Below, piece after piece: positions 3,685-56,231 of a stretch of DNA of 64,000 bases. The notes under the pieces were generated by a model, which searched no databases, was not told where the DNA came from, and saw only the letters and a list, made by a program, of their open reading frames with translations. Position 1 is the first letter of the stretch. Every line of letters starts with the position of its first letter. A program made the translations under genes and the position numbers. Source of the DNA: Bdellovibrionales bacterium (GTDB lineage Bacteria > Bdellovibrionota > Bdellovibrionia > Bdellovibrionales > UBA1609); the NCBI GenBank assembly GCA_965261545.1, contig CBDHDF010000011.1, positions 256,001 to 320,000 on the forward strand, read 5' to 3'.

Positions 3685-4553
3685 TAAAACACCGGAGGAG
3701 TTGCAAAAGTTGCTTCAAAGGTGTTCAAACTATGGCCCAAGTCACGGGTCACTTTCTTAAAATGATGGTTGGACTCCTTGGCCGCCTTGTTGGACAATGC
3801 CAAGGATTCACTTTGAAGTTTTAGCATTTGACCATTGATCTTTAAAATCTGACTGAGAATATGAAGAATGGCTGCCTGCCCCTCAAGGTTTGTGCGAGCC
3901 GCACCTTTAAGGCCCATATGAGGGGCACTTGCTGCCATACGCCTTGAGTTCTGTTCCTGCGAATGGGCGTAGGAATTTATGGAGCTTACCATTTTAATAC
4001 TCTCTGCCACTGTCTCATCGTGAAGCCTTAACAATAGCTCTTCTTTCCCACGGGGGATTTGACCATAAAGGCGTTCAACCTCATCCATGGCCCCTTTAAA
4101 TGATTTCAAGTCTCCAAGGATTTTCCCACCTTCAATGGGAAAGCTTTCTAAAAGGCCCATGGCCTCATTAAGACCCATATTGATAGACTCGATCATATCC
4201 TTATGTTCCTTGGCATTTTCATAAATTACTTTCATTTGTTCGTATTGTTTGACGGACTGAGAAAGAATCTTAATGAGGTAAGGGGTTGTCATGGCTCCAT
4301 CAATACCTAAAAGCGCATGGCTTTTGTGGGGAGTGAAAGTGACAACAGTCCCTACAAACAGTAAGAATCCTAGGGCGAACAACAGGCGAGAAAATAATGG
4401 GTTCAAGGTGAACAACAGGCGAGGGAATAGCAGGCTTAGGGGGAACAATAGGCGATGAAATAACAGACTTAGAGCGAGTAACAAGTTTGGTGTGACAGAC
4501 TTACATATAAATTCACATAGAAACGCATAGAAAGGAATTTTAATTTTTTTCAA
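3684..4553 (-). CDS. VirB5/TrbJ-like exported helical protein
   Basis: Signal-like SHA cleavage site, helical body, located between virB4 and virB6 homologs. Confidence 0.5.
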   Translation of the reverse strand: MKKIKIPFYAFLCEFICKSVTPNLLLALSLLFHRLLFPLSLLFPRLLFTLNPLFSRLLFALGFLLFVGTVVTFTPHKSHALLGIDGAMTTPYLIKILSQSVKQYEQMKVIYENAKEHKDMIESINMGLNEAMGLLESFPIEGGKILGDLKSFKGAMDEVERLYGQIPRGKEELLLRLHDETVAESIKMVSSINSYAHSQEQNSRRMAASAPHMGLKGAARTNLEGQAAILHILSQILKINGQMLKLQSESLALSNKAAKESNHHFKKVTRDLGHSLNTFEATFATPPVF

Positions 4554-5749
4554 CTTTGCCCTCCTTGGGTTATCTTATGGCTTACAATTTCTTCCAAGAC
4601 CTCCAAATAACTGTGGTCTGGGAATTTCTCTTTAAATTGATGAATAATGGCCTTGTCCTTGGGGTCCGTGGTGCAAATCCAATAGGACAAGGGATCAGGT
4701 TCAATCTTGAGGATGGACTCTTTGTCATCTTGAATATAAAGACATTCTGAAAAGCCTCCCTTCTGTGAACGCAGAGATTTGACAACCTCAATCTCTGTTT
4801 CATTGAGTGAGAGAATTTCTTGAAATTCCTTCCAGTCCACCCCACGCTGCTTTAAAATGATTCGACTGGGTGTGTTTTGCATAATGGCGGCGGCCACCTC
4901 TGGATCAAACATAAAATCTTTAATGGATTGAGTGATTCCCCAAATTCCACCATAGAACTTCCTCATAGTGCGGTAGCACTCAATGACAAATTGGGCGGCA
5001 CTCTCGTTTTGTAAGAGCTTCCAAATCTCATCCACAATGAGAAGGTATCTCTGGGAGGGATTTTTAGACGCCTCATTCATAATATACTCAGTTAAAATGA
5101 GTAAAAGGACTCGCTGAAGATCGGGGTAAACATCAAGCCCCTTCACTTCAATGGCCACAAGGGGTTTTGTGAGTTCAATATTGGTGGGACCATCAAGAAG
5201 CTTTCCGTAGGCACTGGCCCCTGTCCAAGAATACAAAATATCAGCGTACCTTCTCATTTCAACAAGGGGGTGGTTCTTCAATATCTTGAGAAGATCGGTC
5301 ATTGTGGGAGACCCACAAGGTGACGCACAAGAAGATCCACGGGAGGGAACGCAGGAGGAAGTACTGAAAAAGGGAATGTTGAAAAATTGAGTGTAGGTTT
5401 CAGAAATGGCTTGTTCCAAAAGAGCTTTTTCTCTTTTGGGTAACCCCTTTGAATCATCTTCTTTGCAGATGGATTCAATAACTCCTAAAAGGAGTTTTTT
5501 CTTAGTGGGGGAAGCTTCCATCTCTCCCCGGCCCAATTGAAAGGCGTTCAGGACAATGCCACTTTCAAGATTCAAGTCAATGAATTGCCCCCCCAGTGAG
5601 TCCACAAGTCCACGGGAAGAAGCCCCATTGTCTATCCAAACCACCTTGGAAAGTCCAAGGTGGTTTTTTGTCTTCGCCTTCTTCATATTCTTCATATTTG
5701 ATTTCCTATTCATGTCTGGTTTCCTGCTTATGTTTGATTCCCTATTCAT
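4550..5749 (-). CDS. virB4: VirB4/TraC ATPase, C-terminal part (split from the N-terminal part)
   Basis: VVWIDNGAS, Walker B LLIVDEIW, RKFYGGIWGITQS, LSYWICTTDPKD. Confidence 0.85.
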   Translation of the reverse strand: MNRESNISRKPDMNRKSNMKNMKKAKTKNHLGLSKVVWIDNGASSRGLVDSLGGQFIDLNLESGIVLNAFQLGRGEMEASPTKKKLLLGVIESICKEDDSKGLPKREKALLEQAISETYTQFFNIPFFSTSSCVPSRGSSCASPCGSPTMTDLLKILKNHPLVEMRRYADILYSWTGASAYGKLLDGPTNIELTKPLVAIEVKGLDVYPDLQRVLLLILTEYIMNEASKNPSQRYLLIVDEIWKLLQNESAAQFVIECYRTMRKFYGGIWGITQSIKDFMFDPEVAAAIMQNTPSRIILKQRGVDWKEFQEILSLNETEIEVVKSLRSQKGGFSECLYIQDDKESILKIEPDPLSYWICTTDPKDKAIIHQFKEKFPDHSYLEVLEEIVSHKITQGGQS

Positions 5750-7149
5750 GTTTGATCTCCTATAAACATTAAAATAAGTTGGCTTATGGTGAAGGATTTC
5801 CCACTCCCACTGGAACCAATGACAAACCCATTCCAGTTGGGCAGTTCTGGCGCAAAAGGGTCGATGGACACCAAAACATGATCCCGGTTAGTGACAAGGC
5901 ATGTGGGCTTGTTGTTTCCCCTCCAGAATGAAAAAACAGGCAGCAAGTGAGAGAGGTTGGAAGATTTCATTTTCTTAGGACGGTTGGTTTGGCAAAGGCC
6001 CGGAGTCGTCTTTAAGAAAGTATCCAGTGTTGCGAAGGTTTCCACCAAACCCTCGGAGTGATTAAGGCTTTTAAAGGTTCTTAAGACTTCATCGCATTTC
6101 TCATCAAGTTCTCTTGTGGTTTTTCCCCAAATAATGACATTCAGGTCAGCCTCAACCACTTTTTCAGAGCTATCAATAATATCAGACAAAAGACCCTCAA
6201 TTTGGCCAAGCTTTGATTCGCTCTCAAGGTCTTGAACGTGATTGCGCTCACTGCTTGCCATGGAGTGGACAATTCTCCTTTTAAGTTGAAGGACGTTGTA
6301 CTCCCTCGTCTGGTCACAAACTTTAACCACCTGGCTGATCCAGCAATGAAAGGGTAAGGCCAAGAGTTCACGAATGAGCCCCGAATAAGTTTCATCGGGA
6401 AGAGTTCTTAAACTCACGGCTCTAAACTTGTAGCTTCCCACCATCACGTCATGAGAGCTTAGGTGGATATCACTAAGCAAAAACTGTGAGAGCAGGGAGC
6501 TTGGTGAAAAAGCCCTAGGACCTTTGAGTTCTGGAACCCTATGGACTTCGGACCTTGATAGGTTGAAATGTTCATACAGAAGCTCAAACCATTCCTTAGA
6601 TGACAAACGACTCTTGAAGAGTTGCCCATCCTTAAGAGAAGATTCCAAGTGGCTCACCGTTCTTTCAAATCGTTCCACATGGGTTTCAAAGTCCTTGGCT
6701 TGAGCCTTTGTGAAGGGTTTTGTTTTTTGAAAAATCCCCTGCTTCCTAAAGGCAAAGGGAAGACCCTTGAGAAAGCAATAGATTTCAGGTTCAAAGAAAT
6801 AACCCATTTCACGATGACTCTTAAGATGAGAAGTTCGCCCCTCCATGATCTTGCGATAGCCCTCAAGAGGACAATTTCTTGATAAAGAAAGATGCTCCTC
6901 AACAAGGGAGTCCACCTTGGGGGTGAGCTTATAAAGAATCTGCAAAGAGGTTCCCGTTCCAAGACCTGTGATAAGGTTTTCAAGTTTTCTTGTAAACTGG
7001 TTGATCTCATCTGCGGTGGCACAGGAAACATCTTTTCCCTTAATCTTAAAGCCGCAACCCAAGGAACCATCTCCAAAAACCATATAATTTCCAAAGAAAT
7101 GCCATAGATTTAAAAAATCACCGATGTTCTGAGGAACTAACAATTTCAT
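5746..7149 (-). CDS. virB4: VirB4/TraC ATPase, N-terminal part ending just after Walker A
   Basis: Start MKLLVPQ after an AAGGAGG RBS; LPNWNGFVIGSSGSGKSF Walker A; stop 13 codons later. Confidence 0.85.
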   Translation of the reverse strand: MKLLVPQNIGDFLNLWHFFGNYMVFGDGSLGCGFKIKGKDVSCATADEINQFTRKLENLITGLGTGTSLQILYKLTPKVDSLVEEHLSLSRNCPLEGYRKIMEGRTSHLKSHREMGYFFEPEIYCFLKGLPFAFRKQGIFQKTKPFTKAQAKDFETHVERFERTVSHLESSLKDGQLFKSRLSSKEWFELLYEHFNLSRSEVHRVPELKGPRAFSPSSLLSQFLLSDIHLSSHDVMVGSYKFRAVSLRTLPDETYSGLIRELLALPFHCWISQVVKVCDQTREYNVLQLKRRIVHSMASSERNHVQDLESESKLGQIEGLLSDIIDSSEKVVEADLNVIIWGKTTRELDEKCDEVLRTFKSLNHSEGLVETFATLDTFLKTTPGLCQTNRPKKMKSSNLSHLLPVFSFWRGNNKPTCLVTNRDHVLVSIDPFAPELPNWNGFVIGSSGSGKSFTISQLILMFIGDQT

Positions 7150-7537
7150 GCCTCCTTTCTTCTTCAAAGCTAAGCTCATCTCCCACACAAAAAATGCCTG
7201 GGAGTACGGAGAATTTGATAAAGTCTTGAATATAACGCTCAGGCTTTCCCCTCTTGCCAAAATAAATTCCAAGTGCTAAAAGGGCCGGGAGCCCAAAAAC
7301 AAGGGCTCCCGTAAACAGGTTTAAGTTTTGGCTATAAAGGCTTTGACTATAAGCTTGGTCGTAAACATGGCTATATGCCTGACCATAAGTTTGACCATGA
7401 ACCTGACCATAAATCTGGCCAAAAATAAGATTCATCACAGATGCAAAAGCTCCCACAGCAATCACATCAAAAAGCTCCATGCCCAAAATCTTGATCTTTG
7501 AATCAAGGTTTCTATGAACAACAGACCGATCTATCAA
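7118..7537 (-). CDS. VirB3-like small membrane protein
   Basis: VHRNLDSKIKILGMELFD, two TM segments, KRGKPERYI; probable TTG start overlapping the pilin stop. Confidence 0.65.
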   Translation of the reverse strand: MIDRSVVHRNLDSKIKILGMELFDVIAVGAFASVMNLIFGQIYGQVHGQTYGQAYSHVYDQAYSQSLYSQNLNLFTGALVFGLPALLALGIYFGKRGKPERYIQDFIKFSVLPGIFCVGDELSFEEERRHEIVSSSEHR

Positions 7538-8296: not shown

Positions 8297-9476
8297 GGTG
8301 AACCGCCTTTTCATTCTGATTTGCCACTTTACCCTTAGGGTCTGTGGCCTTTTTCTTACCGCTTTCCATCTTCTCACTATGGTCTGCCGCCTCCTCCCTA
8401 TGGCCTGCACCCTTCTTATTCTGATCTTCCTCCTTCTCCTCGATGAGTTGCCAATTAAGAATCTCTAGGCTTACATTAAATTCTCTTGTGACTTCATGGA
8501 GCATGGTCGTTGATGAATCGGATTTTCCAATGCTAAAATCTTTTTCTGCCTTTCTAGGGCAATAGCTATAGTCCTGAAAACCCACCTTCACCTCACCCTT
8601 GGATTCAACTATGGGCTTGATGTAAAGTTCATTGATTCCATCAGAGAGCATATCTTCATTGATTTGAAGGGAGGCATAGAGGTATGGGTCATTGAAACCT
8701 TTGAAGTATTTTATTTCCTCAAAGTTATACTCCTTATCTCCAATTCTTAGAACCAAGTCGATGGATTTTGAATCCTTATCAAAAGGAATGGGTGATTCAT
8801 TCTTTCCAAGATAGTCTCGGTGAGAAACCACACACTTTCCCTTTTCCTCTATGTATCCACACCTTTTTGAGATGTTAGACTTTGAAGGGTCTTCACAAAA
8901 ATGATTCTTCCAAGATGCTTCAACAGAGACATCATAGATGCTCGAGAACCGACTCTCTTTTCGCACACCACTTCTCACTTTGACTTCGACCATATCACCG
9001 GCTTTCACACGGCTGACCCAAAGCTCCTTATCAACTCTTTGGTCTCTAAGGATCACATCCATCATTCGTCTAAAGCGAGGAGGAGATACCTTTTTCTTAT
9101 TTTCAGGTACTGGCTCTTTAACATTGTCGGATTCCTGAGTAGGTCCTTCCTCTTTGTTTGTGGTGTCATTCAGATTATTGATGTCTTCCATGGCCTTTAT
9201 GGAATCTATGGCATCTCGACACCCATGACGTCCTTTTTTGCCTTCTGCCACCTCTGTAGGATCCATTAAAAGATCGTTCCTAAAATATTTCATCTTCTCG
9301 TCTTCTAGTCCTCTGAAAATGATGCAAGGAGTGCCTTCTGACTCTTCATCCAAACCACCACACGCAGACAAAACCATTGGCAAGGTAATAAGACCTAAAA
9401 AAGCTATTCTTTTAAAAATTCTTACTTCATTCTTCTTACAAAAAAATTGGCAGATATTATTTTTTCTTTTATTCAT
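8289..9476 (-). CDS. Putative lipoprotein
   Basis: Lipobox VLSAC after a hydrophobic stretch; Cys-containing body. Confidence 0.65.
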   Translation of the reverse strand: MNKRKNNICQFFCKKNEVRIFKRIAFLGLITLPMVLSACGGLDEESEGTPCIIFRGLEDEKMKYFRNDLLMDPTEVAEGKKGRHGCRDAIDSIKAMEDINNLNDTTNKEEGPTQESDNVKEPVPENKKKVSPPRFRRMMDVILRDQRVDKELWVSRVKAGDMVEVKVRSGVRKESRFSSIYDVSVEASWKNHFCEDPSKSNISKRCGYIEEKGKCVVSHRDYLGKNESPIPFDKDSKSIDLVLRIGDKEYNFEEIKYFKGFNDPYLYASLQINEDMLSDGINELYIKPIVESKGEVKVGFQDYSYCPRKAEKDFSIGKSDSSTTMLHEVTREFNVSLEILNWQLIEEKEEDQNKKGAGHREEAADHSEKMESGKKKATDPKGKVANQNEKAVHHE

Positions 9477-9682
9477 GACTGTAATTCTCCTAAAGGTTGG
9501 ATTTTTATTTTTTTTAGTTTTTTTAATTTTATTAATCTTCTTAATTTTTCTTTAACTTGTTTGCGATATTTCTTATCGTAGAATTTATTATTCTTCTGCA
9601 TATCACATCTTCTACTAATGACTTCCAAATCATTTATTTCTTTACCTTTCTTAAACGCACCTAAATTTCGTAGTTTCGACAT
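9473..9682 (-). CDS. Small basic hypothetical protein
   Basis: Lys-rich 69 aa ORF; ATGA overlap with the next gene. Confidence 0.45.
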   Translation of the reverse strand: MSKLRNLGAFKKGKEINDLEVISRRCDMQKNNKFYDKKYRKQVKEKLRRLIKLKKLKKIKIQPLGELQS

Positions 9683-9686
9683 TACA

Positions 9687-9899
9687 TTAACTCTCCACCA
9701 CTATGATTGATTTGATCAGATTGAAGGTATCTACAAGATCAAGTGTTTTTTCGTTTCTCTCTTGTATTTCATCAATCGCATCAAAAATCTCCATTGTTTC
9801 CAAACTATAAAGACCACATGATGGGCACTTGTACGGAAAGTTAAATTCAACATAAAAAGCCTCATCACAACGCAAACAACTTTTCATTCTATATCTCAA
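9687..9899 (-). CDS. Small zinc-ribbon protein
   Basis: CLRC...CPSC; GGAGGTG RBS upstream. Confidence 0.6.
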   Translation of the reverse strand: MRYRMKSCLRCDEAFYVEFNFPYKCPSCGLYSLETMEIFDAIDEIQERNEKTLDLVDTFNLIKSIIVVES

Positions 9900-9936: not shown

Positions 9937-10446
9937 TTAAATTCTTTTTTTTATCACTTTTTTATTCATTTTCTTTTTCCCATGACATCGATTTCTTCTT
10001 ATGACTTCTTTCAACAAAAGATCAGAAATTCTCTTAAGGGCACGATCTTTTGTGTATTTAACAGCCACACGACTGACACCAAGCTTTTTTGAAGCTCCGC
10101 CCAAGCTAAGGTTTTCCCAGAAAATGTGATGTAAAACCTGTCTTTGATTCTCTGAAAGCTGATTGATGATCTCTCCCAGAATTTCTTCCAGATGAAGGAA
10201 ATTCTTTGGATCGGTGGCCGGAGAGAAGACTTTTTCATGATCTTCTTGAGAAAGATTCTCAGAAAGACGCCCCATCATGCTTGAGTTCTCCATGAGAAGC
10301 TCTTTTTGTTTAACGTCTACAGTGGAATCAAGATAGGTCTCCCAATCACTCGCTGACCAACTATGACAGACCTTTTTGATCTCTTCATCAGACATTGGTA
10401 AGCCGTCTTTTTGGGTCCAAATTTTACTTGTACTCTTTTTTTTCAT
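9937..10446 (-). CDS. Sigma70 region-4 (ECF-like) transcription factor heading the transfer operon
   Basis: LSENQRQVLHHIFWENLSLGGASKKLGVSRVAVKYTKDRALKRI HTH; AAGGAG RBS before MKKKSTS. Confidence 0.8.
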   Translation of the reverse strand: MKKKSTSKIWTQKDGLPMSDEEIKKVCHSWSASDWETYLDSTVDVKQKELLMENSSMMGRLSENLSQEDHEKVFSPATDPKNFLHLEEILGEIINQLSENQRQVLHHIFWENLSLGGASKKLGVSRVAVKYTKDRALKRISDLLLKEVIRRNRCHGKKKMNKKVIKKRI

Positions 10447-10562
10447 ATCAACTCCTTGTAATGCTCCCTGCAATGTTCTCTTGTTTTCAAGGAAGCTAAG
10501 AATTAAACTCATTTTCTCACTTCTTTAATTATTTAATAATTTACTCTTCTTTCTATTCACCT

Positions 10563-10897
10563 CCTCTCATATATGTGAAAATGTTAATGTAGAGGATTAA
10601 CAGCTCCTTCTTTTATGGCGAGAACATCTCACTCAATCAGAAACCATCAAAACCCATTCCTTGCTATTCTGAGTCTCTTTCAAATGCTTCAAAAAAAGCC
10701 TTTCCCCCCTACCTATGTGAAAACGTTAATGTGGGGGGGTTAACAGTCCCGTATTTATTGAAGAAAATGGAATTCATTAAAAAATCTATTTCCTCCTATT
10801 TTTGAGCTCCTTTCAAATACTTGCCCAAGGTCTCTCCCAAAAAAGCCATTCCCCCTACCTATGTGAAAATGTTAATGTAGGGGGTTAACAACTCCTT
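10563..10897. repeat. Three direct copies of a ~45-bp motif at 142/146-bp spacing
   Basis: Core TATGTGAAAAYGTTAATGTRGRGG..TTAACA starts at 10572, 10714 and 10860. Confidence 0.9.
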
Positions 10898-10961
10898 ATT
10901 TATTGAAAGAAGCACCTGAACTCATCACGACCCTTCCATCATTGCCTTTCAATTTATTCAA

Positions 10962-10977
10962 TGCACAAGACGGACCA
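10962..10977 (-). promoter_or_regulatory. Candidate sigma54 (-24/-12) promoter facing the sigma/T4SS operon
   Basis: Minus strand reads TGGTCCGTCTTGTGCA = GG-N10-GC; an imperfect match to the TGGCACG-N4-TTGC consensus. Confidence 0.55.
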
Positions 10978-10992
10978 AATGTTCCAAAGACA

Positions 10993-11005
10993 TAAATGAC
11001 TGATT
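10993..11005 (-). promoter_or_regulatory. IHF consensus site
   Basis: AATCAG-TCAT-TTA matches WATCAR-N4-TTR; lies between the sigma54 motif and the upstream boxes. Confidence 0.55.
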
Positions 11006-11030
11006 TTATTGGATATTTAATTTTGAGATA

Positions 11031-11174
11031 TGGACCATAAATAGGTCATGGCCCAAAATATTGAGTTAATTTCATCGAAGCGAAGTAAAAGTAAAGAACA
11101 GTGGACCACTTTCGGTCTATTTAAAATATGTGATGAATGATTTAAGGGATTTAGACAAACCCACAAGTGGGACA
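11031..11174. promoter_or_regulatory. Cluster of 18-bp imperfect palindromes (candidate enhancer sites)
   Basis: TGGACCATAAATAGGTCA (11031), TGGACCACTTTCGGTCTA (11102), AAACCCACAAGTGGGACA (11157). Confidence 0.55.
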
Positions 11175-11470
11175 GAATAATAAAGTGATGGATTATTTTG
11201 TCATTTATTACAATAAAATATTAAACGATAACCCAAAATCTAGAAATTTTTCTGATTTTTTTATGATTTTTTATTAATGAACTCGACGGAAAACCATGAG
11301 AGTCGGAAATTCAAAATGAGTTATATTAAAAGTTTAGAAAAATCCTCTCTTGTATCTCACAATCATAATTGCAATAGCACCTTGAGTTTGGCTTTCATTG
11401 ATAATCATAGCTCTCTGGATTCCTGTTTCAAGGGGTGATCTATTCAGTCGACATAGAGATTGGAGCCCTC

Positions 11471-11587
11471 GTGCGCCACGAAGCGCAAACACATCGGTGG
11501 TGAAAGTCCACACGAGGAAGTGCCTCAGCACACCTCGCAGCGAGTCTTGGGCTCATGGAGGTAACAATATGAGTTAAGCGTAGATAG
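11471..11587 (+). mobile_element. Group II intron 5' stub truncated by IS4
   Basis: Begins GTGCG; nearly identical to the intron start at 62702 that leads into an RT ORF. Confidence 0.85.
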
Positions 11588-13004
11588 CAATGCCGTTTCC
11601 TTAAGCCACCACACCCCTCTGCCTCTGCGTTAAGCTATTTCTTTTAAAAGAACTCCCAGCCCTTTTGATAGACCTTTCATAGCTTCTTTTGAAGTGCCTC
11701 CTCTTCTCCATTGAAATCTTCATCAGCAACTTTATCTGCTTCCTAAATTTCTGATAGAGCCCCGCAACAAAAAGGGGGATGCTATCCATTATGAAATCAA
11801 GAATCAGTTTAAAGTTAGGTTTTTTGTAGTCATTTTTTACCAACTGATTCACACTGTCTTCATCCTCATTTATGCTCATTTGAATCTTTGTATAATTGAA
11901 GAGCCAAAAATAAGAATACAGCTCTTGCAATATTCCATTAAGGCTTGTTGAGTGCCACTGCTCCATTTTCATTGTCGATGTAAAATCACGAAATGTCGTT
12001 TCTATTTCCCAACGACGAGAGTAAAGAGCAACCATATCCTTCTTGTCCAAGGAGCCATGCGGAAGATTAGTGGCCAAAACAGAGAACTCCCCAGTCTTTG
12101 GGTTTTTATACTTATAGAGATGAATGACCACCCCCTCAATAACCATTTGTGAATACCAACCTGGGCCATTAAATAAATTTACGATGGGGATAAAAGTAGA
12201 GCCTCGCTTACAACGCGCAATAAAGAAGTTACTGGCTTGAGCATGGGCCTTAATAATCTCTGTAGATAAATAAAGCCTATCGTAGAGAGTTATGCTATTA
12301 CTCTCAAAACTACCTATCATTTGAATAGCATTGGCGATTTCGTTGAGAGCGGGAGAATAGCAAAGATTCTTTGTCACACCCGATAAAACGTCATAAGCAT
12401 GAGATAGATACATACGTAAGAAATGAGTTTCCATCTCATTTGGGCAAGGGTACCCACAATAACCCTCCTTTAAAAGATCTTTAGAGCGAGGAAGTGCTAA
12501 TTGGTCGCCATCTATGGCATAGATATAAAAGCCATGAAACGTTTTTCTCAATGGTTCGTAGTCTGTAATCAGAGATTCAAAGATATTTTTAAAAAATAGG
12601 TAAGAAATACTTTGACGTATCTTGCTGAGACTGCTTTTGACTGGCATGAGAAGCAGGTCACCAAAATGAGTCCATACCGTCTTAAGAGCGATTTGGTAGC
12701 CTTCGTAATTTGTTCCGGAAATAAGATAGATAATAGTAAAAAAGAAAATTTGAGGATTAAATTTTCGATTCCTTTTTTGTTTTTCTGGATCGACAAGGTG
12801 CTCTGGCTTGAAGGAAGAATCAAGTTTTGGTAGAATAAAATGGTCATCTGTGACGCGAACTCGTCATTTGGGGGCTTTCGAGATCAATATTGGATTGCAT
12901 GTGACTTACTCCTTGGTTGAGGGTTGGGTGTAAAATAAAACAAGTCTTATTCTTGTCGATTTATCTAATAATTTCAAGAGATTTTTCTTAAGGAAACGGC
13001 ATTG
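11588..13004 (-). mobile_element. IS4-family element, copy 1
   Basis: 18-bp terminal IRs CAATGCCGTTTCCTTAAG / CTTAAGGAAACGGCATTG enclosing a transposase. Confidence 0.9.
11601..12647 (-). CDS. IS4-family DDE transposase (frame stays open upstream to ~12863 without an ATG)
   Basis: AIDGD, YDRLY, YSRRWEIETTFRDF (YREK-like motif). Confidence 0.85.
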   Translation of the reverse strand: MPVKSSLSKIRQSISYLFFKNIFESLITDYEPLRKTFHGFYIYAIDGDQLALPRSKDLLKEGYCGYPCPNEMETHFLRMYLSHAYDVLSGVTKNLCYSPALNEIANAIQMIGSFESNSITLYDRLYLSTEIIKAHAQASNFFIARCKRGSTFIPIVNLFNGPGWYSQMVIEGVVIHLYKYKNPKTGEFSVLATNLPHGSLDKKDMVALYSRRWEIETTFRDFTSTMKMEQWHSTSLNGILQELYSYFWLFNYTKIQMSINEDEDSVNQLVKNDYKKPNFKLILDFIMDSIPLFVAGLYQKFRKQIKLLMKISMEKRRHFKRSYERSIKRAGSSFKRNSLTQRQRGVVA

Positions 13005-13157
13005 ATCAGGGACTGTAAAAATAATTGTGTAACTGCAATTTTTTTCTTAAATCTTAAAGCCACTTATGTGGCTCCACTCCTGGTAAAAAGCACAGTCCCA
13101 TATTATTCGTCAATGTATAATTGACATTTTTTCCTTCAAGCGATTTTGTCAGTCACA

Positions 13158-18513: not shown

Positions 18514-21099
18514 ATGGTTTCATTAACAACAACGGAGTGGTTATCGAAAAGACCAAAATGGCTGCAGTCTGCTGCAAAGCGATTGTTAGAATCTGGCGAA
18601 ATCAATGAAACCGCCATTGGTGAACTTGTAGTGCTATGCCAGCAGGAAGCCAACAGTAAATTCCCTGATATCGATTACAGTATTCCAACAAATACCTTTG
18701 ATACACATGATTCGGAAGAAATCCGCTTATGTTCGATTAGCGAAATTGCAGGAGTTAATAGACTGGCTCCCAAAAAGCCACTTCATTTTGGTACCAACAA
18801 TATTGCTGTTGTTTACGGAAAAAACAGTTCTGGAAAATCAGGCTATGTCCGCCTACTCAAACATATTTGCGGAGCCCGTGACTGTATTCGTGGCCAACTG
18901 CACAAAGATGTGTTCTCGACTAAAGACGTTGTTCAAAAAGCCAAAATATCCTTTCTCAAAAACAACTCTCCTTCTGAACATGAGTGGTCAGGTCAGGGTG
19001 TTTGTGACGATCTGAGATCAGTTGACATTTTTGATACCTCTTTTAGCCGGGTGTTCATGGGTAGTGAGAATGAAGTCAGCTATGAACCTCCAGAACTTTC
19101 TTTTTTCAGCAGGCTTATTGATGTTTGTGAGAAAGTGGCGGCAAAACTTGATGCAGACAAAGAATCACTCAAATCAAAAATGGCGAATCTCCCTAACAAC
19201 CTCCTTGGTTCCACTGAGGCAGATTGGTGGGGAAAGCTTAGTGCTAAAACGCAGACTGATGAAATTGATATCCATTGTTCTTTCACTCTGGAAAACGAGA
19301 CGGAACTACTGGATATCCAGAAAAGAATTTCAGAACAATCGCCAGTTGATAAGGCCAGTCAATTAAAGAACAAAAAAACTTACGCTGACAGTATTATCAA
19401 TGACGTTCAAAATTACCTCAATCAACTATCTGATGAAAATTGCAAACGAATCATCGCTACCAAAAAAAAATCCATCCTAAAAGAGTCGGCCTCTGAAACT
19501 GCTGCCAAAGATGCATTCAATGGCGAACAGCTTGAAGGAATTGGTTCCAATGTCTGGAAAGAGCTTTGGAATGCTGCTCGGAAATATTCAGAGGAATTAG
19601 CTTATAACGGGCAGGTGTTTCCTGTTGTTCAGGACGATTCTGCTTGTGTGCTATGTCATCAGCCACTATCAGAAGATGCGAAGCAAAGGTTCATATCTTT
19701 TGAATCGTACATAAAAGGAGAGACTCAAAAACAAGCTGTTCAAGCAGCAAAAAAAGCTAAACAGGCTATTGATGCCCTGCCGGATATCCCCAGCGTTGAA
19801 GCACTAAAAACAAAGATAGACGCTGCAGGCATAGAGAATCAGAATATTATTAAGGCTCTGACTGATGCAGTCACCACTCTTCTGGATAGAAAAACAAAAT
19901 TACTATCACTTGAATCAGAAGACGCTTTAACGAGCATTGAGCAGACTCCACCTTGGTTGAAGGAAATACATAAAATCTCGCAGGAATACGAGGAAAGCGC
20001 TAAGAAATATCAGGAAGATACAACCAAAGACAATCGGGAAGAACTTCAAAAAGAATTGAAGAATCTTCAGACAAAAAAGTGGCTTGCCGAGCAAAAAACT
20101 GCGATTCAAGAAGAAGTCAATCGTCTCCAGATTCTTGAAAGAATTGAGAAAGCTAAAAAGAAAACCAGTTCTGCGGTATTGTCCAAGAAAAAGGGAGAAT
20201 TGGCAAAGACGCATATCACTGATGACTTCGTTAAGCGTTTTTATAATGAACTCAAATGCTTGGAAGCCTCTCAACTTAATGTCAAATTAATCCAACCCAA
20301 GGTTTCTAAAGGGAAAGTCCTTTACACTCTTCAATTGAATGGGGCTGCCCATAATCACCTCAATGACGTCCTTAGTGAAGGTGAGTATCGAATTGTCTCT
20401 ATTGCCGCATTTCTTGCTGATGTTACGGGTAGGAATTATCCGGCTCCCTTTGTGTTTGATGATCCGATTTCTTCTCTTGATCAAGATTATGAGGAAGCCG
20501 TGGTTCGACGGCTTTGCCAGATCGCCTCCAAAAGACAGGTTATCATATTCACGCATCGTCTTTCACTCCTGGGGATGGTTCAGGATTATGCCAAAGGTGC
20601 AAGTATCGAGCCTACAATCATTTGCATTCGTGAAGAACCATGGGGAACTGGTGAACCTGGAAACACTCCATTGTATGCACAAAGACCATTACAAGCACTT
20701 AACACTCTAATCGAGAGGCTTTCACAAGCAAAAAATATTTTTAATAAAAAGGGTTATGATGCTTATGAATCAGAAGCGAAGTCTCTTTGCATTGAATTCA
20801 GAATTCTTCTCGAACGAATGGTAGAGTATGAGCTCATGTCAGATGTTGTACATCGGTATAGGCGGGCAATTAATACAATGGGCAAAATTGGCAATTTGGC
20901 AAAGATCTCAAAAAAAGACTGTACATATTTTGATAATTTGATGAAAAAGTATTCAAAATATGTACACTCCCAGCCACTTGAAGTACCCCTCCCTCTTCCA
21001 AAGCCAGATGACTTAGAATCTGATTTTAAGGAACTAAAGCAGTGGCAAGAGGAGTTTAAAAAGAGACCAATAACTCCAGTTCTTCAGGAGGCTCAATGA
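18514..21099 (+). CDS. Rad50/RloC-like ABC ATPase with zinc hook and possible HEPN-like C-terminus
   Basis: Walker A GKNSSGKS, CVLC hook within coiled coil, LSEGE, FDDPISSLD, FTH, C-terminal SKYVH. Confidence 0.75.
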   Translation: MVSLTTTEWLSKRPKWLQSAAKRLLESGEINETAIGELVVLCQQEANSKFPDIDYSIPTNTFDTHDSEEIRLCSISEIAGVNRLAPKKPLHFGTNNIAVVYGKNSSGKSGYVRLLKHICGARDCIRGQLHKDVFSTKDVVQKAKISFLKNNSPSEHEWSGQGVCDDLRSVDIFDTSFSRVFMGSENEVSYEPPELSFFSRLIDVCEKVAAKLDADKESLKSKMANLPNNLLGSTEADWWGKLSAKTQTDEIDIHCSFTLENETELLDIQKRISEQSPVDKASQLKNKKTYADSIINDVQNYLNQLSDENCKRIIATKKKSILKESASETAAKDAFNGEQLEGIGSNVWKELWNAARKYSEELAYNGQVFPVVQDDSACVLCHQPLSEDAKQRFISFESYIKGETQKQAVQAAKKAKQAIDALPDIPSVEALKTKIDAAGIENQNIIKALTDAVTTLLDRKTKLLSLESEDALTSIEQTPPWLKEIHKISQEYEESAKKYQEDTTKDNREELQKELKNLQTKKWLAEQKTAIQEEVNRLQILERIEKAKKKTSSAVLSKKKGELAKTHITDDFVKRFYNELKCLEASQLNVKLIQPKVSKGKVLYTLQLNGAAHNHLNDVLSEGEYRIVSIAAFLADVTGRNYPAPFVFDDPISSLDQDYEEAVVRRLCQIASKRQVIIFTHRLSLLGMVQDYAKGASIEPTIICIREEPWGTGEPGNTPLYAQRPLQALNTLIERLSQAKNIFNKKGYDAYESEAKSLCIEFRILLERMVEYELMSDVVHRYRRAINTMGKIGNLAKISKKDCTYFDNLMKKYSKYVHSQPLEVPLPLPKPDDLESDFKELKQWQEEFKKRPITPVLQEAQ

Positions 21100-22334
21100 A
21101 GTTCCTCCACACATCAGACTGGCATTTAGGGCGCTCCCTTTACGGCAGGAAACGCTATGAGGAGTTTTCGGCATTTCTGGATTGGCTGACCCAGACCATC
21201 AAAGATGAAGGGGTTGACGCTCTCCTTGTGGCTGGTGATGTGTTTGATACCAGCACACCAAGCAATCGGGCACAGGAGCTCTATTATCGATTCCTCTGCC
21301 GGGTTTCCACATCATGTTGCCGCCATGTTGTGGTCATTGCCGGTAACCATGATTCCCCTTCATTTCTCAATGCCCCTAAGGAATTGCTGCGGGCGCTGAA
21401 TGTGTATGTGGTCGGCTTCATGACTGAATCTTTGGAAGATGAGGTGATTGTTCTTTACAAGGATGAGCAGCCGGAGGCAATTGTCTGCGCAGTACCGTAC
21501 CTGCGGGACAAAGATATCCGGACGATCGAGCCGGGAGAAACCATTGACGATAAAAATGCCAAGCTTGCTGAAGGGCTGAAAAAGCATTATACGGATGTCT
21601 GTAGCATTGCAGAACAGAAACAAACCGAATTTGAAAATGCCGGGCACGACGGTATTCCTATCGTTGCCATGGGGCACCTCTTCACAGCGGGCGGCAAGAC
21701 CGTTGACGGAGATGGAGTCAGAGAACTTTATGTAGGCTCATTGGCTCACGTTGGTGAGGAAGTCTTTCCTTCATCAATCGATTATCTCGCGCTCGGTCAT
21801 TTGCACGTTCCTCAGGCCGTCGGCAGCGCTGAGCACATCCGTTATTGCGGATCGCCCATACCGATGGGCTATGGCGAAGCGACTCAGGAAAAGAAGGTTG
21901 TACTCATTGGGTTCAACAGCACTACTTCAAATATTCGGGAACTTTCGGTGCCGTGTTTTCAACAACTGATCCGAATCGTCGGTTCACTGGACGATATCCA
22001 TGCAAAGCTGGAAGAGCTGAAAAAGGAAGAAAACTGTGCATGGCTTGAGATTGAATATACCGGCAGCGACATCATCGGCAGCCTGCGTGAAATGCTTGAT
22101 GAGGCATTGGCCGATTCCTTCATGGAGATTCGGCGGATAAAAAACAGGCGCATCATGGATCAGGTAATCAGTACGATTGCGGAAAATGAAACCCTTGATG
22201 ATTTGGATGCCGGTGACGTCTTTACCCGCTGTCTGGATACTTTTGATGTTCCTGATGAAGACCGGGAGGAACTGACGGCGTCCTATAACGAAGTAGTCAA
22301 GTCTCTTCGTGAAGAAGACGTAAATGCGGAATAG
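21096..22334 (+). CDS. sbcD: Nuclease SbcCD subunit D (Mre11-like)
   Basis: HTSDWHLG, AGDVFD, GNHDS, GHLF, ALGHLH. Confidence 0.95.
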   Translation: MKFLHTSDWHLGRSLYGRKRYEEFSAFLDWLTQTIKDEGVDALLVAGDVFDTSTPSNRAQELYYRFLCRVSTSCCRHVVVIAGNHDSPSFLNAPKELLRALNVYVVGFMTESLEDEVIVLYKDEQPEAIVCAVPYLRDKDIRTIEPGETIDDKNAKLAEGLKKHYTDVCSIAEQKQTEFENAGHDGIPIVAMGHLFTAGGKTVDGDGVRELYVGSLAHVGEEVFPSSIDYLALGHLHVPQAVGSAEHIRYCGSPIPMGYGEATQEKKVVLIGFNSTTSNIRELSVPCFQQLIRIVGSLDDIHAKLEELKKEENCAWLEIEYTGSDIIGSLREMLDEALADSFMEIRRIKNRRIMDQVISTIAENETLDDLDAGDVFTRCLDTFDVPDEDREELTASYNEVVKSLREEDVNAE

Positions 22335-22345
22335 AGAGGCTAATT

Positions 22346-25300
22346 ATGAAGATACTTGAACTCCGATTTAAAAACCTCAATTCCCTCTACGGTGAATGGG
22401 TCATTGACTTCACCGATCCCGAACATGTATCCAATGGAATTTTTGCTCTGACCGGCCCGACCGGTGCGGGTAAATCGACTATTCTTGATGCTATCTGTCT
22501 TGCCCTGTATGGAGCGACGCCCCGCCTTGGAAAAATCACGAAGAGCGGAAACGAAATCATGTCCTGTCAGACCGGTGAGTGCTATGCCGAGGTGTTGTTT
22601 GAATCTCAGTCTGGCCGCTTCCGTTGCCACTGGGAACAGCACCGTGCGCGAAAAAAAGCTGAGGGTAATCTGCAGGATCAGGAGCACCAGATTGCGGATG
22701 CCGACACCAGCAAACCCATCGAAACCAAAAAGAGTTTGGTCGCCGGAGTCATCGAAGAAAAGACGGGGATGGACTTTGACCGGTTCACCCGCTCCATCTT
22801 GTTGGCTCAGGGTGGCTTTGATACCTTCCTGAAGGCAAACGTTGAGCAGAAGTCTAAGATTCTGGAACAGATCACCGGCACTGAGATTTATTCGAAAATT
22901 TCACAACGTGTTCATGAGCGCCAGCGTGACGAACAGGAAAAGTTGAACCTGCTGCAGGTCGAAACATCCGGCATTGTGATTCTGGAGCCAGAACAGGAAA
23001 AAGAGATTCAACAGGATCTTGAAGGCAAGCAAAAAGAAAATATCGAGCTCAACGGCAAATCAGCTGAAACAAGAAAAGCCATTACTTGGCTCACTTCCAT
23101 TGATGGATTGAAAAAGAAAATCAGCAGCCTTGCTGAAGAAGCAGTTAAGTTGCAAAATGATGTAGAGGTATTCAAACCGAAACGTGACAAACTTGATCGA
23201 GCCATAAAGGCCGCTTCATTGGATGGATTGTATGCAACACTCACTACCATCCAAAAGCAGCATTCAGAAGATCAAGCGAACCTGAAAGCCAAGGAAGCAG
23301 CTCTTCCAGAACTGGAGTCTTCTGCCAATACGCAGGCAGAATTACTCAATTCGGCGGAACAACAAACGGTTAAAGCCAAAAAGGAGCTGAAAGCAGCAGC
23401 ACCGCTCATCCAGAACGTTCGCCTTCTCGATCAAAAACTCACCGAACAGGAAAAGGCTGTTTCAGACGGTACCGAGAGCTGCACCAAGGATGTGGCAAAG
23501 ATTGATGCGGATAAGCAGGATCGAGCTAAAAAACAGGAAAACTGGACCGAGGCCGAAAAAACTCTGAAGCTTGCTGAAGGCTATCTCAAGGAGCATGCAC
23601 AGGATGAATGGCTGATCAGTGGTCTGGCCGGTATTGAAGAACAGCTGGACAGACTGCTCTCCAGACAAAAAGAGATCGATCAGAAAGAGATAGATTACAA
23701 GAAGGTTGAATCGACTCTGGAGCAAGTGGTAAAGAAACTCGACGAATGTGCAAAGCAATGCGGTATCCGCAAACAGGAAATTGAGGACGCATCAAAAAAA
23801 CTTCAGCAAGGGAAAGATACCTTGGGTGCATTGCTGAGTGACCGACCGTTGCGTGAATATCGTACCGAGAAAGAAACTCTATTTCGTGAAATGACTTTTC
23901 TGTCAAGGATTGCGGAGCTTGAAGGTCACCGGGCCAAACTGGAAGACGGCAAACCCTGTTCTCTTTGTGGTGCTAAAGAACACCCCTTTGCCAAGGGGAA
24001 TATTCCGGTACCCGATGAAACCGAACAGAAAATTGAGATGCTCACCAAGTTGATCACCAAGGCTGAGGAGATGGAGGCCGCCAATAAAAAGCTGGAAGAG
24101 GGAAAAACCGCTGCCAACAAAAATCTAACCAAAAGTGAAAAACTGGAAGCAACTGCGGTCAATGATAAAAAAGCAGCTAAGAAAGACCTTGTGGAATTGA
24201 AGAATGACCTGGAGAAACTTCGGGCCGATTTTACCAAACTGAAAGAGGCGGTATCCGTCAAACTTCAGCCGCTTGGCATTACAGAAATACCCGAGACGCA
24301 AGTTTCATTACTATTTAAATCTCTCAAGGGTCGTTTGAATGCATGGAAGGATCAGGTTAAGAAAAAGGTGGGAATCGAAAAACAGATTGCAGACATCGAT
24401 AGTGAGATGAAGCGTCTGGATGCAGTCATTGCAACTCAAGAAGCCGCCTTGACTAAGAAGTTGGAAGGTTTGGAAACGCTGAAAAAGGAACATGCGGACG
24501 AGAGTGAAGAGCGGAAGAAATTGTATGGAGATAAAAAAACTGACGATGAAGAAAGCCGCCTGAATAAAGCCGTTACAGATGCTGAGGAAGCTGAAAAAAA
24601 GGCCAGCGCACTGAACTTTAAGCTGCAGCAGGAATTCACAACTTCAAAAACGCATGTTGAATCCCTGAAAGAGCGCATCGAACAGAGAATGCCGGAACTG
24701 ACAAAAGCGGAAACCGATTTCTCATCAGCACTCGAACCGGCTGGATTTTCAGATGACAAGCAGTTCCTTGAAGCCAGACTGACAAATGAAGAGCGGACTA
24801 TTTTATCTGCCAGAGCAAAGAAACTGGATGACACTCAAACAGATATCAAGGCCAGACAAAAAGATCATGAAACGCACTTGACCACGGAGATAGCCCAAAA
24901 GATTACTGACAAATCCCTTGAGGAGTTGGAATCGCAATTCAAGAAGTATGAGGAGTCACTAAAAGAGCTGTGCGAAGCCATTGCCGGTCTCAAATATAAG
25001 CTGAATGAGAATACAGCTTCCAAAGAGCGGATAAAGGAAAAGCAGATCGCTATTGAGGCTCAGAAAAAAGAGTATCATCGCTGGGAAAAACTGCATAATC
25101 TGATCGGTTCTGCTGACGGAAAAAAATACCGCAACTTTGCTCAGGGGCTGACCTTTGAGTTGATGGTTTTACATTCCAACCGCCAGTTGGAAAAGATGAC
25201 CGACCGTTATCTGCTTATTCGTGATGACGAACAGCCTCTGGAGTTGAACGTCGTTGATAATTATCAAGCAGGTGAAATCAGATCGACCAAGAATCTGTCC

Positions 25301-25603
25301 GGTGGAGAAAGCTTCATTGTCAGCCTCACATTGGCGCTGGGACTTTCCAAAATGGCCAGCCGCAAAGTTCGTGTGGATTCCCTGTTTCTCGATGAAGGCT
25401 TCGGTACCTTGGATGAGGAAGCTCTGGAAACCGCTCTGGAAACATTGTCCGGTCTTCAGCAGGACGGTAAGTTGATTGGAATCATCTCCCACGTCTCTGC
25501 ACTAAAGGAAAGGATCAGTACACAGATAACGATAACACCTGTCTCCGGCGGCCGCAGTTCACTTGCCGGTCCGGGCTGTAATAAGGTCGCTAACAGTGAA
25601 TAA
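22346..25603 (+). CDS. sbcC: Nuclease SbcCD subunit C (Rad50-like)
   Basis: NLNSL, GPTGAGKS, CSLC hook, LSGGE, FLDEGFGTLD, ISH. Confidence 0.95.
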   Translation: MKILELRFKNLNSLYGEWVIDFTDPEHVSNGIFALTGPTGAGKSTILDAICLALYGATPRLGKITKSGNEIMSCQTGECYAEVLFESQSGRFRCHWEQHRARKKAEGNLQDQEHQIADADTSKPIETKKSLVAGVIEEKTGMDFDRFTRSILLAQGGFDTFLKANVEQKSKILEQITGTEIYSKISQRVHERQRDEQEKLNLLQVETSGIVILEPEQEKEIQQDLEGKQKENIELNGKSAETRKAITWLTSIDGLKKKISSLAEEAVKLQNDVEVFKPKRDKLDRAIKAASLDGLYATLTTIQKQHSEDQANLKAKEAALPELESSANTQAELLNSAEQQTVKAKKELKAAAPLIQNVRLLDQKLTEQEKAVSDGTESCTKDVAKIDADKQDRAKKQENWTEAEKTLKLAEGYLKEHAQDEWLISGLAGIEEQLDRLLSRQKEIDQKEIDYKKVESTLEQVVKKLDECAKQCGIRKQEIEDASKKLQQGKDTLGALLSDRPLREYRTEKETLFREMTFLSRIAELEGHRAKLEDGKPCSLCGAKEHPFAKGNIPVPDETEQKIEMLTKLITKAEEMEAANKKLEEGKTAANKNLTKSEKLEATAVNDKKAAKKDLVELKNDLEKLRADFTKLKEAVSVKLQPLGITEIPETQVSLLFKSLKGRLNAWKDQVKKKVGIEKQIADIDSEMKRLDAVIATQEAALTKKLEGLETLKKEHADESEERKKLYGDKKTDDEESRLNKAVTDAEEAEKKASALNFKLQQEFTTSKTHVESLKERIEQRMPELTKAETDFSSALEPAGFSDDKQFLEARLTNEERTILSARAKKLDDTQTDIKARQKDHETHLTTEIAQKITDKSLEELESQFKKYEESLKELCEAIAGLKYKLNENTASKERIKEKQIAIEAQKKEYHRWEKLHNLIGSADGKKYRNFAQGLTFELMVLHSNRQLEKMTDRYLLIRDDEQPLELNVVDNYQAGEIRSTKNLSGGESFIVSLTLALGLSKMASRKVRVDSLFLDEGFGTLDEEALETALETLSGLQQDGKLIGIISHVSALKERISTQITITPVSGGRSSLAGPGCNKVANSE

Positions 25604-25618
25604 AAGGGAACGATTCTA

Positions 25619-44858: not shown

Positions 44859-45023
44859 AGGAGAGACTTAGTCTCTGCCTGAATACTTTAATGACAGGTG
44901 CCCTTTTACGTCACTTATGTTGAAAAGATTGATAGTTTTTGCCGCCACCCCCTTTCATGCAACCTCATTCACTTTAAAGCCTCTCAGGTCGAACCTCAAG
45001 AAATCAAATAGCATAAATAGCGT

Positions 45024-45184
45024 TGTCCCAAAAATGGCCTCGTTTAAATAGGAGGTCGCCTTAAATGGACCATGGGTGGTCCATTGAAGATATTTAAATA
45101 TTTCAGAAAAAAAGTGTGTCATTTCATAATGATAAATACTTTTCTTTTGCACACACCTCATATCTTGACCCAAACTTTGGTCAA
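45024..45184. promoter_or_regulatory. Cluster of 18-bp palindromes (candidate enhancer sites)
   Basis: TGTCCCAAAAATGGCCTC (45024), TGGACCATGGGTGGTCCA (45066), TGACCCAAACTTTGGTCA (45166). Confidence 0.55.
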
Positions 45185-45243
45185 TGGAATGACAGTGAGA
45201 TGGTGTGAGTGCCTTGAAACCCACTTAGGTTTGAATACAGATT

Positions 45244-45259
45244 TGGCATGATTTATGCT
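45244..45259 (+). promoter_or_regulatory. Sigma54 (-24/-12) promoter
   Basis: TGGCATGATTTATGCT = GG-N10-GC, upstream of a GAFTGA-activator operon. Confidence 0.7.
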
Positions 45260-45571
45260 TATAAAAATCTATGAAAGCATTTTTTAATTTACATCATTTG
45301 AACTTACATCATAAAGGCTCATATATTTTTAGGTCTATATTAGAAACCACATCTTTTGATTTACTCCCCATCATAGCCTCTAAATATTACAGGAAAGAAA
45401 AGAACTAAGAAGAATTAAGAATAAGGTGTCACGCCCACCTATATATGAAAGTCTATAAAAGACATGTTCATAACATGAAAGACATGCTCATATAGTTCAT
45501 ATAGATATATAGGTCGTATAAAGGGCTGTAGGCAATAGATTCGATTCTACAATAGTGGGAGGTATCAATCA

Positions 45572-48081: not shown

Positions 48082-48452
48082 AGAAATTAATAAGAAAAAG
48101 TATTTTAGGAATTATATCTCTTATGCCAATACAAGCATTAGGATTTGCTTCAGATTTTTCCTCAATTTTTTTATCAGACATATATGAAGATAGTGCTCCA
48201 AATACTGCAAACCAAGAATATGAAAAAGAACTTGTGAGACGACTTGAAGAGGGAACACTGTCTCATAAATATTATGATTTCATGGAAAAGCATAGAATAC
48301 ATAGCACGGATGATCTATTGTCTTCTCGATCTCAGAAGAATTTAAAGAAGCTCACAAGAGAATTTATTAAAGATATCCATGAACCACTTCTTGCAAGTAA
48401 AAATGTGATATTATCAGAAAATCTAAGCGACGCATGGCCAAAGAAAAAATGA
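48078..48452 (+). CDS. 124-aa secreted protein; candidate precursor/signal
   Basis: AAGGAG RBS, signal peptide MKKLIRKSILGIISLMPIQALG, C-terminus LSENLSDAWPKKK. Role inferred from context. Confidence 0.65.
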   Translation: MKKLIRKSILGIISLMPIQALGFASDFSSIFLSDIYEDSAPNTANQEYEKELVRRLEEGTLSHKYYDFMEKHRIHSTDDLLSSRSQKNLKKLTREFIKDIHEPLLASKNVILSENLSDAWPKKK

Positions 48453-56100: not shown

Positions 56101-56231
56101 GCATAGAAGATTTGAATAGATACTAATAATGAAGTTCAAGAATAAAAAAAATATTACGAGTTAAAGAATTATTTTTCTCTTTAATCCGAGGAAATGAATG
56201 AATTTCATAAAATATATGGAGACTTATTTTT

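Follow-up and report, generated by a model that had tools for sequence, protein, structure and literature searches.

A predicted sigma54-dependent promoter with clustered enhancer boxes that likely controls the transfer operon of a Bdellovibrionales integrative conjugative element

How might the DNA-transfer genes of a mobile element be linked to a signalling operon that lies 34 kb away? This question is raised by positions 10962-11174 of the stretch of Bdellovibrionales DNA analysed here (64,000 nucleotides, G000:C11:256001-320000, hereafter the window). An initial annotation had proposed that the activator encoded at 45572 switches on the transfer cascade as well as its own operon, in response to cell density. 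Judged from sequence comparisons, the two promoters are probably under shared control by sigma54 and this activator, and the region at 10962-11174 is likely to serve as a sigma54-dependent master promoter for the transfer genes of an integrative conjugative element. The features of this region and its leader are as follows.

10962-10978, minus strand: predicted sigma54 -24/-12 promoter of the transfer operon, the 17-mer TTGGTCCGTCTTGTGCA with a GG-N10-GC core; predicted start near 10951
10979-10987, minus strand: second -24-like element, 9 bp upstream of the spaced one, with 6 of 9 columns invariant
10993-11005, minus strand: IHF-type site AATCAGTCATTTA, which matches WATCARxxxxTTR exactly and is flanked on its 5' side by an A-tract
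11031-11048: proximal 18-bp box TGGACCATAAATAGGTCA (cross-score p=1.1e-5; relatives-only matrix p=3.9e-5)
11049-11054: extra half-site abutting the proximal box, its GG..CA columns kept in 4 of 4 elements
11102-11119: middle 18-bp box (cross-score p=2.5e-5; relatives-only matrix p=3.5e-3)
11157-11174: distal 18-bp box (cross-score p=6.8e-5; relatives-only matrix p=3.5e-5)
10572-10901: leader segment separating the promoter from the region-4 gene, with three direct repeats of 42 bp spaced 142 and 146 bp apart

The corresponding features of the signalling promoter are these.

45024-45041: box 1 (transfer-side matrix p=6.8e-5; aligned in 5 elements)
45066-45083: box 2 (transfer-side matrix p=3.2e-6; aligned in 5 elements)
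45166-45183: box 3 (transfer-side matrix p=5.9e-5; relatives-only matrix p=1.2e-6)
45243-45259, plus strand: predicted sigma54 promoter of the signalling operon, TTGGCATGATTTATGCT (p=3.9e-5); predicted start near 45270

The individual motifs named in the initial annotation are present. Specifically, GG-N10-GC occurs on the minus strand at 10962, with GG and GC invariant in 4 of 4 elements; the IHF site at 10993-11005 is exact with respect to the consensus printed in PMC3897727 (WATCARxxxxTTR) and has one mismatch to the WATCAA form; and 18-bp boxes are found on both sides, at 11102, 11157, 45024, 45066 and 45166. A sixth box at 11031, which that annotation did not name, is the best cross-scoring one. 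Shared architecture was also claimed, and this is seen in the boxes and the predicted sigma54 sites. No IHF match within one mismatch exists in 45001-45300 at the window signalling promoter, and thus IHF is not established as common to both promoters.

Taken singly, GG-N10-GC, the IHF pattern and the loose box pattern are each weak. Any 300 bp of one strand should hold 0.70 copies of a bare GG-N10-GC, the IHF pattern turns up in 9% of 2000 shuffles of 10900-11300, and the loose box pattern with two mismatches has 43 hits in the window versus 31.8 expected. The transfer-side 17-mer is likewise weak by itself (p=3.7e-3, third best in 10500-11300), with four mismatches to the sigma54 consensus. 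The box cluster, unlike these single motifs, is strong. When a matrix built from the three signalling-side boxes alone was used to scan the 4.3 Mb genome, its top three sites in the transfer region were 11031, 11102 and 11157, and none of 410 column-shuffled matrices gave two hits in that region. At the top-1e-4 threshold, only five clusters of three boxes in 250 bp occur in the whole genome, and all five are this element's two promoters or near-identical copies of them. At looser thresholds, three-box clusters number 17 (3e-4) and 217 (1e-3).

The boxes have the form TG(A/G/T)(C/A)CC-N6-GG(G/T)(T/C/A)CA. Comparison with related elements suggests that the window boxes have drifted from the family consensus TGACCC-N6-GGGTCA. 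A matrix derived from 18 boxes at the signalling promoters of six relatives scores 11102 and 45024 at only p=3.5e-3 and p=1.2e-3; the 12 clusters that it yields at 3e-4 include neither promoter of the window, and the transfer promoter of the copy on contig C10 ranks 18th among its top 20 windows.

The initial annotation had also likened the boxes to the NtrC palindrome, a resemblance that proves superficial. The box is 18 bp long, whereas the NtrC box is 17 bp (PMC8743547), and the best matches on the transfer and signalling sides carry five and six mismatches, respectively, to the 14 fixed positions of TGCACCAnnnTGGTGCA. The 45572 activator also scores below the NtrC cut-off (TIGR01818, 332 versus 558.6 bits). 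Several other candidate sites were rejected. The transfer-side GG might form half of a fourth box at 10971, but that 18-mer reaches only p=5e-3 and 4e-2, and relatives hold TGG and GC with other half-site letters. The sequences at 45216 and 11049 are not full boxes, and box-like hits at L059:6089 and L040:12524 resemble terminator hairpins; hits that fell within coding regions were left out.

Conservation of the arrangement was assessed in three relatives (L058, L059 and L218) that carry an activator 67-70% identical to that of the window, the same VirB module, and DNA upstream of it; L244 came without upstream DNA. In these relatives, the signalling operon lies 2-3 kb upstream of the transfer genes and in line with them. 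All three transfer promoters align to the window gap-free. In the four aligned elements, the distance from the start of the proximal box to the sigma54 17-mer is exactly 70 bp, the second box lies 140-142 bp upstream of the 17-mer, and only TGG and GC are invariant within the 17-mer. Because 20 of 83 G/C columns in the alignment are invariant, the probability that the four GG/GC columns would all be so by chance is about 0.003. The IHF-like motif ends 14 nt before the 17-mer with 6 of its 13 columns invariant in four elements, and the site is within one mismatch of the consensus in two of the three relatives. The distal box at 11157, centred at about -214 from the predicted start, is not clearly kept in L058 and L059. 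At the signalling promoters of six relatives, the three boxes and TGGCA..TGC are kept. There, box 3 lies 65-70 bp from the promoter, compared with 77 bp in the window, or one helical turn more; the 70 bp of the transfer side match this 65-70 bp spacing.

These observations bear on a first rival account, in which the resemblance between the two regions arose by chance or one region is a functionless relic of a duplicated promoter. Single motifs are common, as noted above, and the boxes of the initial annotation were chosen with knowledge of both regions. Regardless, a blastn comparison of the two regions (E<=0.01) gives no match, which argues against a simple duplication, conservation is focused on motif columns at fixed distances in four elements, and the best box in the cross-test is the unnamed one at 11031. 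The conserved register and the shuffled-matrix results appear largely to refute this account, which we consider hardly credible.

A second rival grants that the boxes are bound but holds that the transfer site itself is decayed or repressive, with the sigma-like protein reading the operon from the leader repeats, or a sigma70 promoter serving instead. The weak -24 (TGGTCC), the mis-spaced TGG element, and the three repeats and region-4 protein inserted after the site all fit such a scheme. A sigma70-like match exists on the minus strand at 11204-11177, where five were found versus 7.8 expected, a number that is not significant. There is also a precedent in the split sigma factor Sig7-8 of Tn916, according to bioRxiv 10.64898/2026.10.01.756105. 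However, TGG, GC, their spacing and the IHF site are kept in three relatives that have no sigma-like gene, and TGGTCC is common to L059 and L218, which argues against a decay specific to the window. The overall sigma54 scores of the 17-mer are mixed, at p=3.2e-5 in L058, 2.5e-3 in L059 and 1.6e-4 in L218, compared with 3.7e-3 in the window. In more distant DNA (L242, with a 29% identical activator), a canonical sigma54 site lies 15 nt after an IHF-like motif, in the register of the window GG (14 nt). The second rival is improbable, and a functional sigma54 site at 10962-10978 is the reading that we follow below.

The mis-spaced element at 10979-10987 reads TTGGAAC in the window and TTGGCAC in three relatives, and lacks a -12 partner. 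As a working -24, TTGG(C/A)AC is the less likely choice: it has no GC at -12 and lies 61 bp from the box, and the canonical site of L242 corresponds to the downstream register. More speculatively, this conserved element may dampen the transfer promoter. The three 42-bp leader repeats are candidate sites for the sigma70 region-4 protein.

What would this promoter transcribe? The genes downstream of it in the window are listed here.

9937-10512, minus strand: sigma70 region-4-only protein, first gene (Pfam PF04545/PF08281)
9687-9887, minus strand: small ORF at the operon head, 66-aa CxxC protein
9473-9682, minus strand: small ORF at the operon head, 69 aa
187-9476, minus strand: transfer operon with a lipoprotein-like ORF, VirB2, a VirB3-like protein, split VirB4 and VirB10
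5746-7272 and 4550-5749, minus strand: split VirB4, two ORFs within the transfer operon

The first gene, called a sigma factor in the initial annotation, is of the sigma70 type but comprises region 4 only. The operon also holds four membrane or periplasmic ORFs, including a VirB9-like one, and the minus-strand ORFs from 10512 leftward mostly overlap. It runs past the window edge to an FtsK-type coupling protein, a relaxase-like winged-HTH ORF, an excisionase-like HTH_17 protein and a tyrosine integrase, with the integrase, HTH_17 and FtsK genes located at G000:C11:250904-256209. The traits of an integrative conjugative element are thus present: integrase, excisionase, a type IV secretion system with VirB4 and VirB10, and coupling protein. 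The relaxase-like protein (C11:253926-254705) has no Pfam relaxase hit of its own and is homologous (E ~1e-27) to two sister proteins that exceed the Replic_Relax cut-off. A short match to a tRNA-Pro 3' end, read by eye, follows the integrase, and relatives abut tRNAs.

In six relatives, the VirB4 C-terminal half is an open frame of only 355-399 aa with 74-82% identity, and thus the split appears to be a subfamily trait rather than decay; one contig from one run carries a 1-base deletion in virB4, at a depth of 3.9, which may be an error. The right end of the window copy is broken by an insertion sequence (IS), and the 34 kb between the two promoters are filled by IS elements and cargo. A contig from another study's run joins 11198 to 13009, which places an IS 24 bp past the distal box, sparing the enhancer. 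The host genome contains rpoN and four genes of the IHF/HU family, as well as a near-identical copy of the whole element on contig C10 and a copy of the signalling half on C2. Cargo at 18514-27592 and 52141-58004 has a defence-like look, with an SbcCD-like pair, a DUF2779 protein and AAA-ATPase genes. The segment 38798-43883, directly before the signalling promoter, encodes a DUF285/PKD surface protein, an orphan HATPase_c gene and a duplicated 127-aa ORF.

The sigma-like gene has no match at this place in L058, L059 and L218, where the first ORF begins within ~70 nt of the promoter; in relatives the 66-aa CxxC ORF comes directly after it. Because the three closest relatives manage without the gene here, the part of the proposed transfer cascade that passes through it would be optional.

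Elements in which the regulator or the transfer module differs allow the two to be told apart. In L229, whose cassette encodes a 55% identical activator, two TGACC-type boxes accompany a canonical sigma54 site, TTGGCACAACTCCTGCT (p=1.2e-7), some 8 kb further downstream; they precede a transfer module unrelated to that of the window, with TrwB/TraD-like, T2SSE and TrbI hits. L240 shares the VirB module of the window (VirB2 84%), its activator is 37% identical, and it has no TGACCC box. Instead, a TGATTC-N6-GAATCA palindrome, a pattern derived from these same regions, is found at both promoters. Only two perfect copies exist in the L240 genome, both at the signalling promoter, and one of the 18 sites with at most one mismatch falls 90 bp before the transfer-side GG-N10-GC. 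The box thus tracks the element's activator across families f1, f2 and f10, and differs where the activator has been swapped.

A finer correspondence concerns the predicted recognition helix. The third base of the half-site is A in 46 of 52 cases where the helix reads PN(T/S), and T in 23 of 26 where it reads SK or AK. In the window, whose helix reads PKT, the 12 half-sites have G six times, A four times and T twice, and the two promoters show an identical 3/2/1 division. In the tree the window falls within the PN clade (95/100), which suggests that the helix and both promoters changed together. An exception is L219, with T three times, A twice and G once despite a PN helix. The boxes in this tally were chosen by matrix or by eye, and since the elements compared are related to one another, few independent changes underlie the counts. 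Given a single change, the L219 exception and hand-picked sites, the helix/box rule is only supportive.

The same comparison weighs on a third rival, in which a host enhancer-binding protein, or another protein of the element such as the integrase or an XRE/HTH protein, binds the boxes at both sites. Potential binders are available, with 22 Sigma54_activat matches in the host genome, eight strong ones of which are not beside mapped element genes, and two strong boxes near an element end (C2:550451 and 550491) have no visible sigma54 site. Yet outside the element there is no three-box cluster at the stringent threshold, and the box follows the element activator and changes with it, as described above. 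A different binding protein is therefore a very unlikely explanation, and we retain the 45572 activator. The two C2 boxes (G000:C2:550451-550508, L239) are among the strongest in the genome, 40 bp apart, near the tRNA-Pro end and upstream of a conserved 70-aa ORF; they are a possible third target of the activator. The window copy of this ORF (58113-58308) is frameshifted, and its upstream region has been replaced by an IS.

Taken together, the initial proposal of one activator for both promoters is well supported, at the level of sequence comparison, by the conserved geometry, by the second transfer module in L229 and by the swapped palindrome in L240; density control is a hypothesis that derives from the anatomy of the signalling operon.

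The association is also seen more widely. In the sister elements of genome G000, the activator lies beside, and divergent from, a sigma-like first gene of the transfer side. A sigma54-like site faces that gene at 7 of 7 places (p 1.7e-4 to 1.8e-3), being the best hit in four of the seven, among which two pairs are near-duplicates. In L050-L054 and L222, a 17-mer beginning with TGG is found a short way upstream of the sigma-like gene, and in most of these sites GT replaces GC at -12; a frequent form is TGGCAC-N5-YTGTA. In L056 and L057, which have sigma-like and VirB genes, no good sigma54 site precedes these genes and the stretch fetched contains no activator, and several cassette loci have no VirB match in the DNA fetched (L040, L042/L231, L044/L230, L221, L224/L225 and L228). 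Thus, the link between activator and transfer genes is common but not universal. Among 13 of 80 metagenomic loci examined there was no further transfer-side promoter of this type, and viral contigs gave only distant radical SAM hits.

To what signal might the activator respond? The signalling operon encodes the following.

45572-47002, plus strand: NtrC-family enhancer-binding protein with a receiver domain, AAA+ domain with GAFTGA, and C-terminal HTH
46963-48081, plus strand: radical SAM/SPASM-type enzyme; no named NCBIfam family reached
48078-48452, plus strand: candidate secreted peptide precursor with a signal-like N-terminus (by eye), conserved middle and variable tail
48434-50005, plus strand: family-5 solute-binding protein (PF00496, E=4.7e-27, 95.5 bits versus a cut-off of 32.4)
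50005-51723, plus strand: hybrid histidine kinase with two transmembrane segments, invariant H225, N and G boxes, and C-terminal receiver-like Asp residues

The HTH assignment of the activator is weak (HTH_50 E=1.9e-4, below cut-off; E=0.13 in a second search). The candidate peptide ORF spans 124-138 aa, with a tail that varies around an invariant Ser, and has no Pfam or NCBIfam hit and no usable Atlas hit. Precursor, modifying enzyme, sensor kinase and regulator thus stand together in one predicted autoregulated operon, the first two by inferred role. At the thresholds used, 11 of 121 relatives carry the radical SAM gene, and the count for the order as a whole is 21 of 384 genomes, G000 included. 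Sister loci (G000:C11:224656-230524, 438665-444946 and 476837-482758, and L240:5715-11926) have the same activator-peptide-binding protein-kinase frame with different enzymes in the maturase slot, of GNAT type in L240. No Pfam match to a TPR/RRNPP receptor (Rap/Phr) or to LuxR or LuxI (TraI/TraR) occurs among the 48 window ORFs scanned.

From this anatomy (peptide-like ORF, radical SAM enzyme, binding protein, kinase, autoregulated promoter and allele swap), it is about an even call that the operon responds to a peptide modified by the radical SAM enzyme and perceived via the binding protein and kinase, which would provide element-specific quorum control. A rival that modifies this explanation rather than replacing it keeps both promoters activator-driven but makes the input something other than positive density sensing, with the peptide inhibiting the kinase, so that transfer would occur where carriers of the element are scarce, as with RapI/PhrI, or with another input altogether; we place its probability just below one half. 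Arguing for density sensing, the boxes and strong sigma54 site before the activator, enzyme and peptide genes imply autoinduction. Autoinduction is typical of activating peptide quorum circuits. Between the window and C10 copies, moreover, the peptide, binding protein and kinase share only 45%, 57% and 64% identity, as against 93-98% for the activator and radical SAM enzyme, a pattern that resembles pherotypes. However, the divergence is spread across the whole of the binding protein and kinase and may reflect a module swap rather than selection for specificity, and the maturase partner differs between cassettes, as noted for L240. In addition, peptide signals borne by elements are reported to hold back transfer among carriers (PMC8055654). 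In the C10 copy (G000:C10:140515-149894), which holds the divergent allele, the activator is split by an IS, and in the C2 copy (G000:C2:538533-546413) the radical SAM gene is split by an IS, whereas the window copy is intact.

We hypothesize a mechanism that follows the standard model of sigma54 activation, as given in PMC7057263. The kinase would phosphorylate the 45572 activator, which would bind the boxes (about -88, -159 and -214) as dimers and oligomerise there, while IHF at -42 to -54 would bend or loop the DNA so that sigma54 holoenzyme would open the promoters near 10951 and near 45270. Transcription would then run from the sigma-like gene through the VirB genes to the coupling protein, relaxase-like gene, excisionase and integrase. 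Activator bound at 45024-45183 would raise its own operon, creating positive feedback, and because the activator diffuses, the 34 kb of IS elements and cargo between the promoters would be no obstacle. If the peptide quorum reading is true, then a strong signalling and a weak transfer promoter would yield an ordered, threshold response. The sigma-like gene and the three leader repeats may add a second tier, like HrpL or Tn916 Sig7-8.

More broadly, these elements may constitute a Bdellovibrionota family of integrative conjugative elements with a sigma54 enhancer switch on excision and transfer, a radical-SAM-matured peptide pheromone perceived via binding protein and kinase, cassette swapping, and helix/box co-evolution that insulates co-resident elements, a composite view that we hold tentatively. 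The tight off state of sigma54 promoters would suit costly transfer machines. With exact boxes, predicted starts and natural activator/box variants to hand, the circuit could be studied in E. coli with no need to grow the host, and the element points to new peptide chemistry and orthogonal activator-enhancer pairs.

The promoter architecture itself is textbook; its use to control conjugation with a candidate modified-peptide signal in a Gram-negative lineage was not found in the open-licence PMC and bioRxiv literature, as far as its accessible text goes. The same scope gave no description of the circuit under Bdellovibrio integrative conjugative elements or radical SAM RiPP quorum control of conjugation; 'conjug' and 'Bdellovibrio' are absent from PMC12316311, and 'rpoN' occurs once in PMC5812530, in a reference title.

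Among known systems, the sigma54 promoters of NtrC/glnAp2, NorR/norV and Desulfovibrio orp share the -24/-12 elements, upstream palindromes, intervening IHF site and GAFTGA activator, as documented in PMC7057263, PMC2831303 (three enhancers) and PMC3897727. In contrast, the target here is a conjugation operon on a mobile element, and there is an extra -24-like element 9 bp upstream. Cluster-encoded activators also turn on secretion machines via sigma54, as predicted here, in VasH/RpoN control of type VI secretion and in the HrpRS pathway through sigma54 and hrpL to type III secretion, the latter acting via a downstream sigma factor with UAS and IHF (PMC10482370 and PMC3105312). Here, the machine is a type IV DNA-transfer system and the activator has a receiver domain and comes with a kinase and binding protein; unlike hrpL, the sigma-like gene encodes region 4 only and is absent in close relatives. 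Similarly, Tn916 places a partial sigma protein, Sig7-8, at the head of its expression (bioRxiv 10.64898/2026.10.01.756105), whereas the sigma-like gene here lies behind a predicted sigma54 promoter, has no partner subunit identified and is missing at this place from three close relatives.

Element-encoded signals and receptors beside transfer genes are known from TraI/TraR. The same arrangement, of which a candidate is present here, is found in RapI-PhrI of ICEBs1 and ComQXP-type systems, according to PMC8055654. What distinguishes this element from these systems is the predicted extracytoplasmic sensing via binding protein and kinase, the predicted sigma54 output and the Gram-negative host. 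In the Vibrio quorum circuit, LuxP/LuxQ signal to LuxO, combining a binding protein, a hybrid kinase and a sigma54 activator. The 45572 activator falls far below the LuxO cut-off (274 versus 800 bits), and the present system differs from LuxPQ-LuxO in having a family-5 binding protein and a candidate modified peptide, in being element-borne, and in its predicted direct control of transfer genes.
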